From the IMG/VR virus record IMGVR_UViG_3300018494_000461: DNA of 20,608 bases; one strand, written 5' to 3'. Each line of letters opens with the position of its first letter. Position 1 is the stretch's first letter. The position numbers and the translations under genes were made by a program. The notes under the pieces were generated by a model that searched no databases, was not told where the DNA came from, and was given only the letters and a program-made list of their open reading frames with translations. The stretch comes from a virus. This document shows positions 7,650 to 15,122 of this stretch, piece by piece.

Positions 7650-7856
7650 TTACCTCCCATACATCGGCCACAGGTCAGAATATTTTCTTACACCATCGCC
7701 AATTTTAATCCAAAAATAATCCTCTGCGTGTATTCTAAAGCACCAAACTTCTCCTGGGTCTGGTACATCTTGGGAGTGGCTACATAGCCACTCCCCATAT
7801 TCTTCCATGCTCTGGAAATCAAACAGTTTCGGCCTCAGTATCCTCGTCCAGTCCAT
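7650..7856 (-). CDS. Hypothetical protein, 68 aa
   Basis: ATG at 7856 has RBS GGAGGAAGCAG but overlaps the last 38 nt of the RNA ligase gene. Its stop lies in the SD of the next gene. Confidence 0.35.
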   Translation of the reverse strand: MDWTRILRPKLFDFQSMEEYGEWLCSHSQDVPDPGEVWCFRIHAEDYFWIKIGDGVRKYSDLWPMYGR

Positions 7857-9237
7857 CTGCTTCCTCCATATCAGGAGCCTCGGCGTTCTCCTTGATGATG
7901 CCTTCCAGCACCTTGAACTGGAAGTTCTTGTGCTTATAGGCGGTGAAAGTAGGACGATTGATTACACGAACTACGACGCCCTCACGGATGTGAGTAGGGT
8001 CAATAGGCTCTTCACCATCGTAGAACTGTTCTGCCTTATTCAAGACCCATTCACCGGCAGAGATAGTGTCATCTTCCTTGGAACCAGGATTCTCGGGAAT
8101 GAAGCCATACCAGTGCAGAGGAACGGTCTTAACACCCATGTACATACAACGATGACGCATCTGGTCAGGAGTGTACTCTACAACCTCGCCATCCTCGTTA
8201 GTCATGGTCATACGATATACATAGATATCGTTCTTGTGGTAGAAGGGGATGCGGTTTACAACATCACCTTGCTCATTGAACTCAAGTTCGTACTGAACAC
8301 CAGGAGCGCAGCCGTAAGAGAAAGTAGTAGTCTCGCCATACTTCTTTACGAACTCCTTATCGTTCAGCTTCTTGTTGTTACATACGCCCATAATAGGCTG
8401 ACCCTCGTGAGTGAAGCCAACAATCTCGTAGTAGACAGTCTCGCCCTTCAGCAACTTGCCCTCAAAGAAATCGTGATAAGGCTTACGGAACTCATTAGAG
8501 CCGTAGAAACCACCATCAAAAGTATCCAGAACAGTGCGGCGAGTACCAGATACATAACCCCAATCGTAGATAGGAGTGCCCTCACGACGCAGGATAATAT
8601 CCAGTAAAGTACGCTTAAAGCCCTTCAAAACCTTGGTATGAGAAGTACGAGCGGAAGTTCCGTGGAGCTTACGAGTAATCTCAATCAAGTCACCAGGCTT
8701 AAACACATGTAGGTTGTAAGCCAACTGCTCAGTATCAATGTGCTCATAGAACACAGGTGCGATAGAGCGCTTTGCCTTACGCTTTGCGCGCTTACCAGCA
8801 CCGCCGGCCGCAGTTGCCTGATGCTTGCTGCGAGGAATGTACTTACGGCAGATTTCATGTCCATTCACAGTAGTGATGGAGTCGCCGATATTCAAGGAGT
8901 CCATATCTACGCCAGTGTAGGCGAGACAAGACAAAGGTAGGAACAGACCATCAGACTGCTCACCACGCAGCTTAATTGCCTTTACATTTCTCTTAGCGGG
9001 GTCCATATAGCCGCCGGAAACATTCTTTCCGTTCTCATATACAGCCAAAAGACCGTTCTTCTGACAAAACTCCATAGACAGCTGCAGGTCTACGGGGAAA
9101 TATACACCAATCTCGCCCTCGGTGTACTTATCCTTTGCGACGCAGACAGTATTTACAAAGCAGGTTGCCAGAACCAGCTTATCTGCGTTAGGATGGGGAC
9201 GTACATCCTTCAAAGTAGTTACATATCCACAATGCAT
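7819..9237 (-). CDS. ATP-dependent RNA ligase with an N-terminal tRNA-binding (OB-fold, Myf/EMAP-like) domain, 472 aa
   Basis: N-terminal HPNADKL..V motif of the tRNA-binding domain. Ligase nucleotidyltransferase motifs: I KLHGTS (compare T4 Rnl2 KIHGTN), III YYEIVGF, IV EGVVVRV, V KHKNFQFK. RBS GAAAGGAG. Confidence 0.8.
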   Translation of the reverse strand: MHCGYVTTLKDVRPHPNADKLVLATCFVNTVCVAKDKYTEGEIGVYFPVDLQLSMEFCQKNGLLAVYENGKNVSGGYMDPAKRNVKAIKLRGEQSDGLFLPLSCLAYTGVDMDSLNIGDSITTVNGHEICRKYIPRSKHQATAAGGAGKRAKRKAKRSIAPVFYEHIDTEQLAYNLHVFKPGDLIEITRKLHGTSARTSHTKVLKGFKRTLLDIILRREGTPIYDWGYVSGTRRTVLDTFDGGFYGSNEFRKPYHDFFEGKLLKGETVYYEIVGFTHEGQPIMGVCNNKKLNDKEFVKKYGETTTFSYGCAPGVQYELEFNEQGDVVNRIPFYHKNDIYVYRMTMTNEDGEVVEYTPDQMRHRCMYMGVKTVPLHWYGFIPENPGSKEDDTISAGEWVLNKAEQFYDGEEPIDPTHIREGVVVRVINRPTFTAYKHKNFQFKVLEGIIKENAEAPDMEEADGLDEDTEAETV

Positions 9238-9575: not shown

Positions 9576-9853
9576 TCGTGTCTCTCCTTATATGTCTGTT
9601 CACGCAGGCAAAGGAAAATTGTATTTCCATGTTCCTGCCAATAATCTTCAACATTACAAACTCCCTTACAGTAATAAGGGGAAGAAGGAATAATATTCCC
9701 TCCATCATCGGGGTTAAGCTGCGGCCCAGCCAACTCAAGAACTTCCAGGTTGGAATCTCGCTCTTTATCTATATCATAGAAAAAGATAGGTAATTCTGGC
9801 GGGAAAACCGCCAACTGCTTCATCAGCTCTCCGACCGTCATAGTCTTAGTCAT
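9572..9853 (-). CDS. Hypothetical protein, 93 aa (paralog B of a tandem pair)
   Basis: ATG at 9853 follows AAGGAGGAAGCTA and lies just after the exonuclease stop. The longer track ORF starting at 9961 would overlap the exonuclease gene. Confidence 0.5.
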   Translation of the reverse strand: MTKTMTVGELMKQLAVFPPELPIFFYDIDKERDSNLEVLELAGPQLNPDDGGNIIPSSPYYCKGVCNVEDYWQEHGNTIFLCLREQTYKERHE

Positions 9854-10754
9854 TAGCTTCCTCCTTAGCGGCGGCCGCAATTGCTCCCTCGGGAGAATAC
9901 TCCCAATAGCAATTATAACGGCACTTTCCAGTCTGAGGAGCGGCCTTGACCGCAGCCTCAATCTTTCTTACAGAGTCAGCGTTCTTAGGACTGACATTGC
10001 GGGCGATGTACTTGATAACCCACAAAGCAGCGGTGTTGAAATCGTTGAAATACTTTGCCTGACCGCTATGTTGGTCGACGCACTTGAGCATCCAATGATT
10101 TTCATCAGCGCCAGTTTCTGCTTCCCACTTAGGCTGAGAATTCCACTTCTGGAAAACCGCAGGAGCCTTTTTGCCGATATGGGGACGAGGCTGAGAAGGC
10201 ATAGCCAGAATAGTTTCCTTATCTTCGGGCTTACACTTATCATACAAGTGAGCCACAACGGTTTCAAGCATACGAGCGTCTTCCAGAGCATCATGCTTCT
10301 GAACCAGTTCTTTCTGCTCCTGGATAAGCATATACACCTTACGAAGAGCCAGGTCGTTCTTTGCGACGAAGAACTTCTTCACCACAGATGCGTAGTCAAT
10401 TAGATTGCCTGCGATAGCCTGGGCGCAGACACAAGCCTGCGTATCGCTCATATGACGGAGTGTGGAATTGATAAATTCGGCATCCGAATTGCCGTAGACA
10501 TAATAGGCAGGAGCTTCACCGTCGCTATTGGCTTCAATGAAATCATACAGCATCTTGAACGCAGCATCTGCGTCCGGAGCTTCAGCCAGCATTTCATTGG
10601 TAATACCGGTCAGTTCGGTGATGAACTTATCGACCTTCTTTTTGTCGCCAGGCTTGACATATGTTTCAAATGTCTCACCCGTTCCAGCGACGCAGCCGAT
10701 ACTGATAATTCGATTTGAAAATCTCGTTGCCTCAAAGTCTAAGTAAAAATTCAT
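9846..10754 (-). CDS. DEDDh-family 3'-5' exonuclease (DnaQ-like fold) with a ~130-aa C-terminal extension of unknown function, 302 aa
   Basis: Exo I YLDFEAT, Exo II YGNSDAEFI, Exo III HDALEDARM. First gene after promoter copy 4. Confidence 0.8.
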   Translation of the reverse strand: MNFYLDFEATRFSNRIISIGCVAGTGETFETYVKPGDKKKVDKFITELTGITNEMLAEAPDADAAFKMLYDFIEANSDGEAPAYYVYGNSDAEFINSTLRHMSDTQACVCAQAIAGNLIDYASVVKKFFVAKNDLALRKVYMLIQEQKELVQKHDALEDARMLETVVAHLYDKCKPEDKETILAMPSQPRPHIGKKAPAVFQKWNSQPKWEAETGADENHWMLKCVDQHSGQAKYFNDFNTAALWVIKYIARNVSPKNADSVRKIEAAVKAAPQTGKCRYNCYWEYSPEGAIAAAAKEEAND

Positions 10755-11969: not shown

Positions 11970-12015
11970 TATGCACTCTCCTATCAAACTTTATCTTTTT
12001 TCATTTTCTATATAT

Positions 12016-12044
12016 ATTATAACATATTTTTTTATAAAAATCAA
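12016..12044 (-). promoter_or_regulatory. Sigma-70 type promoter, cassette copy 5: -35 TTGATT (12039-12044), 17-nt spacer, TGtTATAAT (12016-12024)
   Basis: Same cassette. Drives the sigma factor operon. Confidence 0.8.
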
Positions 12045-12074
12045 ATAAGCCCTTTCTGTTGAGAAAGGGCTTAT
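12045..12074 (-). terminator. Intrinsic terminator: 13-bp stem ATAAGCCCTTTCT/AGAAAGGGCTTAT with loop GTTG, directly abutting the -35
   Basis: On the minus strand the hairpin is followed by TTGATTTTT. Confidence 0.8.
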
Positions 12075-12078
12075 CTTT

Positions 12079-12204
12079 TTAATTAGCCAATGTTTTATTA
12101 GCTGTTCTAAATCGCCAATAGTGGCGAGCATACTGAATGGCATTGTAGCCATCAACGCTACACAGCCACATTGCGACACAAGTCAGAAAACCACGAATAT
12201 CCAT
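12079..12204 (-). CDS. Possible small protein, 41 aa (MDIRGFLTCVAMWLCSVDGY...)
   Basis: ATG coupled as TAATG to the upstream gene. Preceded by GGAGGGTTCACTA. Short ORF; the track's 11991-12179 ORF in another frame runs through the terminator and promoter and is rejected. Confidence 0.25.
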   Translation of the reverse strand: MDIRGFLTCVAMWLCSVDGYNAIQYARHYWRFRTANKTLAN

Positions 12205-12443
12205 TAGTGAACCCTCCAAGTATAACCACATTGCTGACAAGAGCAATAAGTTTGAACTTTAGTTTTTGTTCGCTTTGGAGCAAAGATTTTAAACACTAGA
12301 GCAGGTAACGTAAAAAAGAGCCATTTCATTGGCACCCAAAACCATCCCCAGCAAATCCACCACAATAATCCATGATGTTTGTTTTTAGTAACAGCAACTG
12401 CTTGAGTATTTACATTTGTGCTTCCACATTTAGGACAAACCAT
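12204..12443 (-). CDS. Zinc-ribbon membrane protein, 79 aa
   Basis: N-terminal CPKCGS and C-terminal CSCQQCGY flank a Trp-rich hydrophobic segment. RBS GAGGAAGG. Confidence 0.5.
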   Translation of the reverse strand: MVCPKCGSTNVNTQAVAVTKNKHHGLLWWICWGWFWVPMKWLFFTLPALVFKIFAPKRTKTKVQTYCSCQQCGYTWRVH

Positions 12444-12449
12444 AATATT

Positions 12450-13256
12450 TTACATTCCTTCCTCTATATAAATTACTTTATCAACATATTTGCGGTCCTC
12501 ACCTTTGAGAATCGGCATATCGTAGTCAATACCGGTTTCACGAGTCCAGGCAGTGCCACGCTTCCAACGAGTTGGAAAATCGTTCCAGTTGATACCTTTT
12601 TGCTCGTGGAGCATATCTTGGATTACGCTACAAGAGCAACCCTGGAGCTTACTGTGAGAGAAGAATGCCTGACCAACCATCTGAATGGAGTTGCGGGTTG
12701 CGTCAAGCTGGCGCCAGTAAATCAGATTACAGGCTTCCTCTTTGGGAATGTTGAACACGCGAGAGTCGAACATAGCACCAATAGATGCTTTCTCGCAGTA
12801 AAGACTATATAGCTTATCCTGCTGCTCCCACCATTCGGGGTCAGTGTGACGAGGGTCGCTCCACTGACGGCTACGCCAAGTACCAACTTCCTCGGCAAAA
12901 TATTTGTTGAACGCCATGGTTGCCATAGAAGCAGAGATAGAACACATCTTCTGTACTTCATAATCGAACCAGGCACTGGTATCGAGAGTCTGGTAGTCAA
13001 TCAACAGGAGAGTGATTTCGTCAGACTGGGTGTAACCGAAGACACAACCCTGGATATTTCTACACAGATGTTCCATGGTTTTTACCATCGCATTTCCCAG
13101 CACTTTATCGAAAGGCTTTTGGAAGCCACGAGTGAAAGTGTGGAAGGCTTTACCGTCGAGGCGAATTGCGACGGGCATTCGTCTCACCAAACGGGTTTTC
13201 GGCACCTGCTCGTAGAAAGTTTTCATACGAGTGCCAAGAGCATCATTCACTGGCAT
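12450..13256 (-). CDS. Thg1-like protein (tRNA-His guanylyltransferase family 3'-5' nucleotidyltransferase), about 268 aa
   Basis: Thg1 hallmarks VAIRLDGKAFHTFT (RxDGxxFxxF) and GYTQSDEITLL (SDE). The best start is the ATG at 13256 after GGAAGGAGAAGAGAAAAA. The track ORF extends to 13340. Confidence 0.85.
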   Translation of the reverse strand: MPVNDALGTRMKTFYEQVPKTRLVRRMPVAIRLDGKAFHTFTRGFQKPFDKVLGNAMVKTMEHLCRNIQGCVFGYTQSDEITLLLIDYQTLDTSAWFDYEVQKMCSISASMATMAFNKYFAEEVGTWRSRQWSDPRHTDPEWWEQQDKLYSLYCEKASIGAMFDSRVFNIPKEEACNLIYWRQLDATRNSIQMVGQAFFSHSKLQGCSCSVIQDMLHEQKGINWNDFPTRWKRGTAWTRETGIDYDMPILKGEDRKYVDKVIYIEEGM

Positions 13257-13473
13257 TTTTTCTCTTCTCCTTCCAAGCTGCACAGTAGTGTGTAGGTTTT
13301 TCATATTTGCGGCTTCTCTTACAATAGCATTTTCCTTCAATGCCGCGTGTTGAAAACGGACCTCTGCCGTCGCCGCAAGTATCGCAGCATTTTACTTCTT
13401 GACTTTTGGAAAATACATCCCTAAACAGGGCTTTTGTTAATTCGCCAGATTGCCATTTTTCAATGGTAGCCAT
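13243..13473 (-). CDS. Small Cys-rich (zinc-binding) protein, 76 aa
   Basis: CCDTCGDG...CYC...C. The start is uncertain; the ATG at 13473 is the first after the upstream gene's stop. The track ORF to 13587 would overlap the phosphoesterase gene by 100 nt. Confidence 0.4.
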   Translation of the reverse strand: MATIEKWQSGELTKALFRDVFSKSQEVKCCDTCGDGRGPFSTRGIEGKCYCKRSRKYEKPTHYCAAWKEKRKNASE

Positions 13474-13486
13474 GGCGACTTCTTCA

Positions 13487-14227
13487 TCAACGACGAACTT
13501 CGCCAATTTTCTTACCTCCACGCTTAGCCTTACGCTTGGTAGCGTTATCAATGGTTTCACGATGGATAGTCTGAATTTTGGAAGCAAAACCAGACTTGAG
13601 GAATTGAGTGAAGTTCACAGGCTCCCAACCAATGACATCAGAGCAGACGTTCAGGTGGTTAGCTCTCTTATGACCGGCATGGTCATGACCATGGATGTTA
13701 AACAACCAAGGAATTTCCACAGGCTCATGAGTCAGAATCAACTTCTCACCAACGATGAGGGCACCCTCATACACCTCATCGAACAGCAGGTTGTCTGCAG
13801 TTGCGACCCAACGCTTAAAAGGAGCGTGAAACTCCCAAGACTCATTGATGGTAATTTTCCAATTATGGAAATACATTCTCATTTCAGCGAGAACTTCTTC
13901 CTTGGTGAACTTATCCTGGTCATAAACACGAGTAATGACCTTGCGCTTGTAGTTAGAAGCGCCGGCATCATGGTTACCCATAATCAGAACCTTATATTCA
14001 GCACGAAGCTGACGCACATACTCGATGTCACCAACGTCGCCCAGAATAACCAGACAGTCGCGGCGGCCGCACTTTGCGTTGATTCTCTTAACCTGCTCTT
14101 CGGCGGAAGGACGACCCTTAATGCCGCCGGCAAGTTCATCATCATTGAAGTGAGGGTCGGAATAAATCCAGACAGTCTGGTGCTTTTCGCCCCAGTGCTG
14201 GAAAGAATCATAGATACCAGCTAACAT
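13487..14227 (-). CDS. Calcineurin-like binuclear metallophosphoesterase, 246 aa
   Basis: DPHF, LGDVGD, GNHD and HGHDH motifs. RBS AAAGGAGG is 8 nt upstream. Confidence 0.8.
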   Translation of the reverse strand: MLAGIYDSFQHWGEKHQTVWIYSDPHFNDDELAGGIKGRPSAEEQVKRINAKCGRRDCLVILGDVGDIEYVRQLRAEYKVLIMGNHDAGASNYKRKVITRVYDQDKFTKEEVLAEMRMYFHNWKITINESWEFHAPFKRWVATADNLLFDEVYEGALIVGEKLILTHEPVEIPWLFNIHGHDHAGHKRANHLNVCSDVIGWEPVNFTQFLKSGFASKIQTIHRETIDNATKRKAKRGGKKIGEVRR

Positions 14228-14240
14228 AATGTCGCCTCCT

Positions 14241-14381
14241 TTAACCTTTAATTAAATACTCAACAGTAGTAACATACAGAGGAATGAAACCGAATAAGAA
14301 CCATCCCTTCCAGGTTCGTTCATGCCACTTGCGATAATGCTTATCATAACGGCTGGTACACCAAATGTACTTAATAATCAT
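14241..14381 (-). CDS. Possible small membrane protein, 46 aa (MIIKYIWCTSRYDKHYRKWHERTWKGWFLFGFIPLYVTTVEYLIKG)
   Basis: Not in the ORF track (under 60 aa). RBS GAAGGGGA is 9 nt upstream. One hydrophobic helix. The stop overlaps the SD of the phosphoesterase gene. Confidence 0.3.
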   Translation of the reverse strand: MIIKYIWCTSRYDKHYRKWHERTWKGWFLFGFIPLYVTTVEYLIKG

Positions 14382-14385
14382 AGTA

Positions 14386-14571
14386 TCAATCCCCTTCTAA
14401 AACTTTGATTACTCTATCACAGAGTTCTTCCATCTGTTCCTTTGTGATTTTTCGCCATTTCCAACACCAAGAGATTCGATTGGAAATCCATTCAATACTG
14501 CGTGTGTGGTAAGGCTTATAATTCTCGTAAGATTGGAGAGCCTTATCAATCTCGCTATAAAACTTATTCAT
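14386..14571 (-). CDS. Hypothetical protein, 61 aa
   Basis: First ORF after promoter copy 6. RBS AGAGGAGAAAGTT. Confidence 0.5.
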   Translation of the reverse strand: MNKFYSEIDKALQSYENYKPYHTRSIEWISNRISWCWKWRKITKEQMEELCDRVIKVLEGD

Positions 14572-14601
14572 AACTTTCTCCTCTCTTTACTTTCTATATA
14601 T

Positions 14602-14630
14602 ATTATAACATATTTTTTATAAAAAATCAA
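14602..14630 (-). promoter_or_regulatory. Sigma-70 type promoter, cassette copy 6: -35 TTGATT (14625-14630), 17-nt spacer, TGtTATAAT (14602-14610)
   Basis: Same cassette. Confidence 0.8.
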
Positions 14631-14661
14631 TAAAGACCCTATGGTTGCCATAGGGTCTTTA
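14631..14661 (-). terminator. Intrinsic terminator: about 14-bp stem TAAAGACCCTATGG/CCATAGGGTCTTTA with loop TTG
   Basis: Directly abuts the -35 of copy 6 and follows the stop of the 85-aa membrane protein gene (14663). Confidence 0.8.
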
Positions 14662-14662
14662 C

Positions 14663-14920
14663 TTAAAATTCAATCTTACTGTCTTTAGACTTGCCTTTAA
14701 AAGCATTTTCGGCTTTTTCAATTAAATAGCCAATATAGTTAGGTTCTCTGTTCTCACGATATTCAACTGCCCAAGAGTAGGTCTTAGGTAAGAATACAAC
14801 AACAAGAACAACCCAAACGACAGGCCAGCCAATTAATGCCAGAAGAGCAAGAAGAAGTGTAATCGCTAAGGCACCTGCGGCCGCAGTTCCCACGGCAATT
14901 AGATAATCTTTAATCCTCAT
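14663..14920 (-). CDS. Small membrane protein with two predicted TM helices and a charged C-tail, 85 aa
   Basis: MRIKDYLIAVGTAAAGALAITLLLALLALIGWPVVWVVLVVVFLPK... RBS AAGGAGTATGTTT before the ATG at 14920. Confidence 0.55.
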   Translation of the reverse strand: MRIKDYLIAVGTAAAGALAITLLLALLALIGWPVVWVVLVVVFLPKTYSWAVEYRENREPNYIGYLIEKAENAFKGKSKDSKIEF

Positions 14921-15122
14921 AAACATACTCCTTATAACTTTTTGCGTAATCGGGAGCACAAATTTTTACCTCGAAATGGTCGTCGTCTATATCGCTGGAA
15001 TAGAATATTTCATGTAATGCCATTTGAATGTCATTTACATAATCTTCTAATTCATCTTCTGGAATGTCCTTAATTCTCATTACAAAATGAAATGGAATAA
15101 CAAAATCAGCATTTTTTGCCAT
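14910..15122 (-). CDS. Hypothetical acidic protein, 70 aa
   Basis: ATG at 15122 follows GGAGACTGATT and lies 13 nt after the phosphatase stop. The track ORF starting at 15281 would overlap the phosphatase gene. Confidence 0.45.
   Translation of the reverse strand: MAKNADFVIPFHFVMRIKDIPEDELEDYVNDIQMALHEIFYSSDIDDDHFEVKICAPDYAKSYKEYVYED

Follow-up and report, generated by a model that had tools for sequence, protein, structure and literature searches.

A Thg1-like protein and an aq_1665-type metallophosphoesterase share one transcription unit in a predicted RNA-repair and NAD-salvage island of a gut Clostridia phage

T4 Pnkp/Rnl1 and Clostridium thermocellum Pnkp-Hen1 act on broken tRNA by a heal-then-seal logic. 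In 2010, Anantharaman, Iyer and Aravind described a persistent neighborhood of Thg1 with polynucleotide kinase, accompanied by Macro and RNA ligase genes, proposed that the kinase furnishes the 5'-phosphate for Thg1, and regarded the Thg1 protein of phage 201phi2-1 as a possible counter-defense repair enzyme (PMC2904730). The RNA-repair kit of jumbo phages described by Iyer et al. in 2021 comprises ligases, RlaP, a CCA enzyme, Thg1, cREC, some calcineurin-like phosphatases and salvage of nicotinamide adenine dinucleotide (NAD) (PMC7824862). Here we analyzed a stretch of 20,608 nucleotides from the virus record IMGVR_UViG_3300018494_000461 (the window), in which a Thg1-like protein (TLP; positions 12450..13256) and a calcineurin-like metallophosphoesterase (MPE; 13487..14227) are encoded in one transcription unit. 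The window belongs to an RNA-repair and NAD-salvage island. Such phage islands have already been published as computational predictions in 2010 and 2021, and the present one is a further example.

The island has the same components and follows the same logic as the neighborhoods described in 2010 and 2021. It differs from them in that the Thg1 gene of the window is paired with an aq_1665-type MPE, the kinase is encoded in another part of the island, and the lineage has four MPE paralogues; the 2010 paper says nothing of calcineurin-like partners for Thg1 (PMC2904730). Encoded just beyond the window, the kinase shares homology with the kinase domains of T4 Pnk and CthPnkp. However, compared with T4 Pnkp/Rnl1 and CthPnkp-Hen1 the phage activities reside on separate polypeptides, the phosphoesterases are aq_1665-like or of other MPE subtypes and not of the lambda/CthPnkp type or HAD, the predicted ligase is Rnl5-like, and a TLP and an RlaP-like nucleotidyltransferase (NTase) are added as putative end-rebuilding polymerases. 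Hen1, present in the C. thermocellum system, was not found in the phage island.

The source of the window is a large phage of gut Clostridia, of roughly 130-190 kb, and the window holds several operons with a common promoter. All of its long open reading frames (ORFs) lie on the minus strand, as do all features of the window given below. A megablast search with positions 12000-15000 against 50,697 phage records gave zero matches. Loci compared with the window are designated by L numbers. Gene identities, active-site residues, unit boundaries and neighborhood statistics were read directly from these sequences.

The Thg1-like protein, the metallophosphoesterase and their unit

The TLP (268 aa) can be placed solidly in the bacterial-type clade by its sequence and, with its active site intact, is predicted to be a 3'-5' nucleotidyltransferase. 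It matched PF04446 with an E value of 1.6e-28 and 99.7 bits (cutoff, 29.2) over profile positions 3-130 of 130, and phrog_4717 ('tRNA-His guanylyltransferase') with an E value of 2.5e-83. Its best solved relative is BtTLP, the TLP of Bacillus thuringiensis (PDB 4KGK/4KGM), with which both halves of the protein align (4kgk; E = 1.4e-52); the matches to an archaeal TLP (5axk; E = 6.8e-11) and to the yeast, Candida and human Thg1 proteins (E ~ 5e-6) were weaker. A reading made earlier from the sequence alone (the sequence-only reading) had named PF04446, PF14413 and PF00149 as the profiles to search. The first and, for the MPE, the last matched above their cutoffs, and PF14413 (Thg1C) did not, with 18.6 bits on the TLP compared with a cutoff of 26.3; the C-terminal half of the TLP aligns with BtTLP residues 126-242 (73.5 bits).

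The key residues of BtTLP/Thg1 are E12, R28, D30, K43, S74, D75 and E76 (PMC3701042). They correspond to E16, R32, D34, K47, S78, D79 and E80 of the phage protein, which show 97-100% conservation across 65 distinct homologues taken from related loci. Among them, the metal-binding carboxylates (D29, D76 and E77 in hTHG1; D30, D75 and E76 in BtTLP) and the residues for activation and nucleotidyl transfer in BtTLP (E12, R28, K43 and S74) have been assigned (PMC3701042), and the phage counterparts of the carboxylates, D34, D79 and E80, are 98-100% conserved. The signatures RLDGKAFHTF and SDE pointed out in the sequence-only reading are both in the Thg1 translation, and the loss of the catalytic aspartates, which it had named as a possible objection, is not seen: D34 and D79 align with BtTLP and are kept in the homologues. 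BtTLP and the phage TLP also have the motif WRQxDAxxNS in common. The phage TLP differs from BtTLP by an insertion of ~37 aa (residues ~124-160) that varies in length and is absent from BtTLP, and by being phage encoded and known here from its sequence. Translation likely starts at ATG 13256, which follows AGGAG and fits the N termini of homologues, MPV(N/H)D; TTG 13340 is a less likely start. Bacterial TLPs favor 5'-truncated tRNAs and lack specificity for tRNA-His (PMC3701042).

The MPE (246 aa) is predicted to be an active phosphoesterase of the aq_1665 subtype. It matched PF00149 with an E value of 9.3e-6 and 26.6 bits (cutoff, 21.5) and phrog_547 with an E value of 3.6e-20. In an alignment of 58 homologues its five motifs (D24xH26, G63D64, G84N85H86D87, H167 and G180H181xH183) are invariant, including the metal ligands D24, H26, D64, N85, H86, H167, H181 and H183. 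Sequence searches of the PDB with the MPE gave nothing usable. We modeled the protein by AlphaFold2 with the 58-sequence alignment; a single-sequence version (predicted local distance difference test score, pLDDT, of 39) was not used. The comparison values were 14.9 for aq_1665 of Aquifex aeolicus (PDB 1XM7), 8.4 for LpxH, 8.2 for MJ0936, 8.1 for YfcE, 7.6 for a PdeM-type nuclease MPE, 7.2 for lambda phosphatase and 6.8 for the CthPnkp phosphatase. The phage MPE differs from aq_1665 by an additional inserted subdomain of ~60 residues (about residues 90-150), which is confidently modeled, and by a basic C-terminal tail, rich in Lys/Arg and conserved. Our literature search found no functional data for aq_1665.

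The sequence-only reading had likened the MPE to the healing domain of CthPnkp. This comparison has to be given up in its specific form: with 14.9 for 1XM7 and 6.8 for the CthPnkp phosphatase the analogy holds at the superfamily level only, and we rejected a specific subfamily kinship with the healing phosphatases of the CthPnkp/lambda type. A Pnkp-style coupling of the unit MPE to a 5'-kinase was rejected as well, as no kinase is encoded in the unit or the window and the kinase outside is paired with a different MPE paralogue. The Thg1-adjacent MPE should thus not be annotated as a Pnkp-type healing phosphatase. It is plausible that the unit MPE is an accessory enzyme acting on RNA ends.

The MPE and Thg1 genes lie in one transcription unit, which runs from a promoter (14630-14602) to a terminator (12076-12043) through the ORFs for a 61-aa protein, a 46-aa protein, the MPE, a Cys-rich protein, Thg1, a 79-aa Zn-ribbon/membrane protein and a 41-aa protein, spaced by 14 nt or less or overlapping. 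The sigma-70-type promoter (14602..14630) reads TTGATT-17-TATAAT with an extended -10 TG, and its -35 region overlaps the T-tail of the upstream terminator (14663-14629). It agrees letter for letter with a 29-nt motif, TTGATTTTT(T)ATAAAAAATATGTTATAAT, of which the window has 7 near-identical minus-strand copies (0 expected from shuffles) plus a variant near 7140. With copies at 1095, 4521, ~7140, 10821, 12044, 14630, 16037 and 19505, the promoter of the unit is the sixth from the low end, as the sequence-only reading had counted; its unit of a calcineurin-like MPE, a small Cys-rich ORF and a Thg1-like protein was likewise confirmed by the PF00149 and PF04446 matches and the unit boundaries, the coding status of the Cys-rich ORF being uncertain. 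Four further ORFs of the unit (61, 46, 79 and 41 aa) and the cREC gene described below had gone unlisted.

The intrinsic terminator that ends the unit (12043..12076) consists of a 15-bp stem followed by a T-run and abuts the next promoter copy (12044-12016), which drives a phage sigma-70 gene (11987-11067; regions 1.2-4). As the phage sigma gene is itself driven by it, the common promoter is probably read by the primary sigma factor of the host; the RNA-repair island would then be expressed jointly and early in infection. Most promoter copies lie directly 3' of an intrinsic terminator. In all 5 copies reached by the terminator scan the T-tail of the terminator is at the same time the -35 region, making a modular terminator-promoter cassette between units. 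The window has no tRNA genes and no Rfam family; two sub-threshold Rfam matches overlap promoter/terminator modules and were taken as chance.

The small ORFs of the unit are conserved to different degrees in its closest relatives. The first gene, the 61-aa ORF (14386..14571), and the 46-aa ORF (14241..14381) have no family match; the former is 92% identical in L001, the latter 100% identical in L001 and 68% in L081, and both are called as genes in L132 and L141, the 61-aa gene at the same place. The Cys-rich ORF (13243..13473; ATG 13473; 76 aa with 6 Cys) overlaps the Thg1 start by 14 nt and had no family match in profile searches. L141 has an identical copy that is not called as a gene, L001 keeps its C-terminal half, another Cys-rich ORF takes its place in L132-134, and L081 lacks it, with a spacing of 4 nt between the MPE and Thg1 genes. 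As it is variable or absent in relatives and uncalled in L141, its coding status and significance are doubtful. The 79-aa ORF (12204..12443) starts 6 nt past the Thg1 stop and has a hydrophobic middle segment; its Zn-ribbon matches were sub-threshold, and a homologue was looked for in L001 and L081 and not found. The 41-aa ORF (12079..12203), which overlaps the preceding stop (TAATG) and is the last before the terminator, was read from the sequence, and whether it codes for a protein is doubtful.

Thg1 in predicted repair operons and the meaning of its pairing with the MPE

We hold with moderate confidence that the TLP works with the products of the island to repair tRNA ends, likely countering host nucleases that target tRNA. 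Support comes from two other phage lineages. In L050 (5164-7322), genes for a Zn-ribbon protein, a kinase, Thg1 and an aq_1665-like MPE follow one another, with gaps of 15 and 21 nt, and in L151 (1374-6283) six contiguous genes within 4.9 kb code for an RNA ligase, a protein like the second MPE of the window (MPE2, see below), Thg1, a kinase and two MPEs. Both operons fit the model of 2010 and 2021. Four MPE subtypes are encoded 1 kb or less from Thg1 in different phage lineages among 80 Thg1 loci (the best 80 of 299 in IMG/VR scans), and in several of 50 loci from Clostridia genomes and metagenome-assembled genomes (MAGs) Thg1 adjoins or lies near Metallophos, PARG/Macro or Band_7 genes. The occurrence of Thg1 in the L050 and L151 operons and beside MPE genes elsewhere therefore supports the view that the TLP is part of an RNA end-repair pathway. 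Island genes lie within 6 kb of Thg1 in 18 of the 80 loci. A comparison of 65 IMG/VR loci showed that a Pnk-like kinase gene abuts an aq_1665-like MPE gene in 52 of them, with an Rnl5-like ligase within 5 kb in 17; this kinase-MPE pair is a conserved healing module.

Several observations weigh against a repair pathway that unites the TLP with the MPE and the island. The unit MPE is neither an obligate nor a conserved partner of Thg1. A window-type MPE gene is found together with Thg1 solely in close relatives of the phage, the nearest ones (L001/L083, L081 and L002, plus L132-134, L141, L207 and L208); 76 of the 80 Thg1 loci have no such MPE within 6 kb, and 48 of the 51 window-type MPE loci from the same scans are without Thg1. 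In cultured phages, none of the 162 Thg1-carrying records has a window-type MPE, which was detectable in only two records of one Arthrobacter phage. The chemistry of TLPs requires no phosphoesterase. The neighborhoods of Thg1 are highly variable, with no neighbor cluster in more than 21 of the 80 loci, and 62 of the loci are without any island gene within 6 kb. Elsewhere, the MPE family is found in DNA-replication modules, next to GyrA-like genes in 14/51 loci and ATP-dependent DNA ligase genes in 11/51 loci, with GyrB, DnaB and primase as further replication neighbors in distant lineages. Because up to four MPE paralogues share one island, some adjacency of an MPE to Thg1 is expected by chance. 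Our literature search turned up no study of a phage TLP by biochemistry or genetics, and a host nuclease able to trim the 5' ends of tRNA was not identified in this analysis.

In view of these data it is quite possible, though less likely than not, that the MPE and Thg1 are functionally unrelated, the MPE being a general phosphoesterase or nuclease for DNA ends, nucleotides or signaling nucleotides that came to lie next to Thg1 by gene shuffling in an accessory island. What speaks against mere neighborhood is that both genes lie in one tightly packed transcription unit, that the MPE genes found beside Thg1 in independent lineages belong to four subtypes, that translational coupling joins the Pnk-like kinase to an aq_1665-like paralogue in the 52 loci mentioned above, and that a window-type MPE gene, not MPE2, overlaps an RlaP-like NTase gene in L205 (538-1870). 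The idea that the MPE and Thg1 are simply unlinked has to be moderated, since Thg1 is found next to further MPE paralogues and within operons that combine kinase, MPE and ligase genes. The window-type family also occurs in tRNA arrays, 300 nt or less from a tRNA gene in 6/51 loci compared with 0/80 Thg1 loci (Fisher p ~ 4e-4; the loci are not independent). As a clue to MPE function this association was dropped because of the dependence between loci and because the same family occurs in DNA-replication modules. The contexts among L088-L123, inside tRNA arrays (for example, L096, L097, L109 and L123) or beside replication genes, contradict each other and hence leave the substrate of the MPE unfixed. 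The juxtaposition of Thg1 and MPE is a lineage-specific detail of uncertain meaning.

Could the TLP instead be a maturation enzyme that adds G-1 opposite C73 to a phage or host tRNA-His that is supplied without G-1? Bacteria normally encode G-1, which counts against this role, and we consider it unlikely. Databases annotate these proteins as tRNA-His guanylyltransferases, relatives of this phage carry tRNA arrays, and a phage tRNA-His in L102 (4695-4771) has C73 and a T at position -1, so that G-1 is not encoded. The 2010 paper kept this option open for phage 201phi2-1 (PMC2904730). However, the TLP falls with BtTLP (E = 1.4e-52), eukaryotic Thg1 being more distant (E ~ 5e-6), the preference of bacterial TLPs is for truncated tRNAs of no particular identity (PMC3701042), no tRNA-His was found in the window, the Thg1 loci or the L140 array, and the kinase, MPE and ligase genes around Thg1 agree with a repair role.

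We likewise find it doubtful that the four MPE paralogues (window type, MPE2, MPE3 and kinase coupled) split the chemistry of tRNA end repair among them, with the unit MPE as the dedicated partner of the TLP that might process a 5'-triphosphate or 5'-blocked or damaged nucleotides of tRNA and thereby let the TLP rebuild the 5' strand of the acceptor. If the unit MPE were such a partner, bacterial-type TLPs would be assigned their first physiological pathway, a counter-defense, and the aq_1665 family would gain its first function. Very unlikely is an excise-and-refill cycle, in which the MPE would remove damaged or blocked 5' nucleotides or trim a 5'-triphosphate left by the TLP and the TLP would rebuild the end as in mitochondrial tRNA 5'-editing, where TLPs do the refill step (PMC3701042): it would agree with the co-transcription of both genes, the nucleases Mre11/SbcD and PdeM within the MPE superfamily and the 5'-triphosphate on TLP products, but it is purely inferential, structural similarity favors a nuclease no more than a phosphatase, and the pairing of MPE and TLP is not conserved.

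The TLP itself is widespread. Homologues are present in the 162 cultured phage records with 39-55% identity, and the PHROG 4717 phages, among them Bc431v3 (gp143), Bacillus phage G (gp378) and Bacillus phage FADO, encode the same protein family; the Thg1 gene of Bc431v3 was pointed out as an unusual phage gene in 2013. The neighborhoods in cultured phages differ, with ribose-phosphate pyrophosphokinase (Prs) and NAPRT in PK-3, prohibitin in FNU3 and a COG0617 NTase in a Vibrio phage. SPFH/Band_7 genes neighbor Thg1 in the Fusobacterium phage FNU3 and in Flavonifractor (L240). In the IMG/VR set, an adenylosuccinate-synthetase-like gene (PurA/PurZ-like, by its N-terminal motif alone) lies ~2 kb upstream of Thg1 in 15/80 loci (for example, L037 2896-3987), and an HD-domain gene lies downstream in 12/80. 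Homologues with 47-73% identity are also widespread in gut Clostridia isolates and MAGs (L207-L256), with Lacrimispora, Robinsoniella, Roseburia, Flavonifractor, Dysosmobacter and Blautia as carriers. The 'MAG' contigs L207, L208, L210, L232 and L241 evidently stem from phages of this group and ended up in bacterial bins. At the chromosomal TLP loci of Clostridia isolates, no homologue of the phage Pnk-like kinase was detectable within 5 kb.

The island around the unit

The neighbors listed by the sequence-only reading, an RNA ligase, a DEDDh exonuclease, a second MPE and a Pol-beta NTase, are all real by profile matches; the label 'PPP' for the second MPE was unsupported. This protein, MPE2 (15106..15984), matched PF00149 (E = 9.7e-10) and phrog_1649. 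We looked for the signature of a PPP-type protein phosphatase, and only the generic PF00149 match was supported; a PDB sequence search gave nothing usable.

The NTase of the Pol-beta fold (16471..17358) matched phrog_388 (E = 2.6e-15). The window protein has no Pfam match, and four of its six orthologues weakly match PF10127 RlaP (best E = 3.7e-4); it is probably a distant relative of RlaP, as judged by these matches, and neither the protein alone nor its profile gave a usable match in the PDB. In vitro, RlaP extends RNA 3' ends by 1-2 nucleotides (PMC12776372). The NTase and MPE2 genes are translationally coupled, with stop and start overlapping or abutting, in L026 (8151-9715), L032 (8070-9676), L038 and L043 (8161-9725), and their window counterparts are set apart by a 110-aa ORF plus a terminator/promoter module.

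The ATP-dependent RNA ligase (7819..9237) has a probable N-terminal OB domain and matched phrog_968 (E = 4e-68). Its other matches were to the PF21189 OB domain (E = 5.6e-7), to PF09414 (E = 8.2e-6; 26.5 bits, cutoff 27), to TIGR02306 (E = 6e-18; 64.8 bits, cutoff 151) and to the OB domain of NgrRnl (E = 0.018), which suggests an architecture like that of Rnl5 (DraRnl/NgrRnl). The NTase and ligase genes are 7 kb apart in the window and 2.5-3 kb apart in L026 and L043. The DEDDh (RNase T/DnaQ-like) 3'-5' exonuclease (9846..10754) matched PF00929 (E = 8e-17) and several NCBIfam families of the DnaQ type. The cREC_REC domain protein (18639..19022) matched PF20274 (E = 4.7e-18), a predicted cyclic-phosphate-processing receiver domain; this role was predicted by Iyer et al. 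2021 (PMC7824862). The family is known to be tied to RNA ligases. In L026 and L043 the cREC_REC gene lies directly between the exonuclease and RNA ligase genes.

Two further groups of genes lie toward the low end of the window. A major-vault-protein homologue of 838 aa (4560-7076; MVP_shoulder, 2e-23; Vault_3, 1.4e-8) has its own promoter copy. Many relatives keep it, and in L026/L043 and L036/L044 it is the direct neighbor of Thg1. A 2023 preprint described such proteins in human gut phages with predicted Clostridia hosts, without a link to Thg1 or RNA repair. The other group (1525-4467) is NAD related and encodes an isochorismatase/nicotinamidase-like protein, Prs, YqeY and Sir2.

The flank beyond this end was read from L138 and L139, contigs that carry the window's identical Sir2 protein. 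L138 (7701-12512) extends the NAD cluster by NAPRTase/NAMPT, NAD synthase, NADAR, an AAA_28 kinase and an NMNAT-like protein. Further on in L138/L139 follow a third MPE, a Zn-ribbon protein, the Pnk-like kinase, whose gene overlaps that of a fourth MPE, and Band_7. The kinase-MPE pair (L138 13963-15044) is roughly 12 kb past window coordinate 1. The kinase matched AAA_33 (3.8e-15), the CthPnkp kinase domain (2.8e-8) and T4 Pnk (1.4e-6), and the kinase-coupled MPE is aq_1665-like (1xm7; 1.2e-4). Profile searches found no polynucleotide kinase within the window. Of the complete toolkit for RNA end healing and sealing that the sequence-only reading had seen in the window, the toolkit thus stands, with cREC, NTase, ligase and exonuclease, and the completeness does not: with the kinase encoded beyond its end, the window is not to be described as complete. 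The order of genes in the island is fluid.

On the other side, 3.6-9 kb past the high end of the window, L140 (133-5341) carries a tRNA array. Two adjacent tRNAs of this array have CUA anticodons (amber suppressors; ARAGORN label 'Pyl'), as does one tRNA in L097, and there may be TAG recoding in this phage group. The genes of the window read normally under code 11. Unusual anticodons are also found in L123, His(AUG) and Tyr(AUA) (5627-5700 and 8325-8397).

A possible pathway and its implications

We infer the substrates, the order of steps and the role in counter-defense of the pathway as follows. During infection, host nucleases that target tRNA would damage tRNAs. The Pnk-like kinase encoded outside the window would phosphorylate 5'-OH ends and give the 5'-phosphate for the TLP, cREC and the MPE paralogues would open or remove 2',3'-cyclic or 3'-phosphates, and the DEDDh exonuclease would trim ends. 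The RlaP-like NTase could then refill 3' nucleotides, an activity known for Pseudomonas RlaP. The TLP would activate the 5'-monophosphate end with ATP or GTP and add nucleotides in the 3'-5' direction with the opposite strand as the template, both as known for BtTLP and other TLPs, by which shortened 5' ends of the tRNA acceptor stem would be rebuilt. Finally, the Rnl5-like ligase may seal nicks, as DraRnl and NgrRnl do. The MPE next to Thg1 may act on an RNA end, possibly on the 5'-triphosphate left by the TLP.

Bacterial-type TLPs repair 5'-truncated tRNAs in vitro. The operons of L050 and L151, in which the TLP is encoded amid a 5'-kinase, phosphoesterases and a nick-sealing ligase, suggest a concrete pathway that can be reconstituted, and the co-regulated island of the window adds to it. 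Tractable cultured carriers, such as Bacillus phage FADO on B. subtilis, make a role of TLPs in counter-defense against tRNA-targeting immunity testable.

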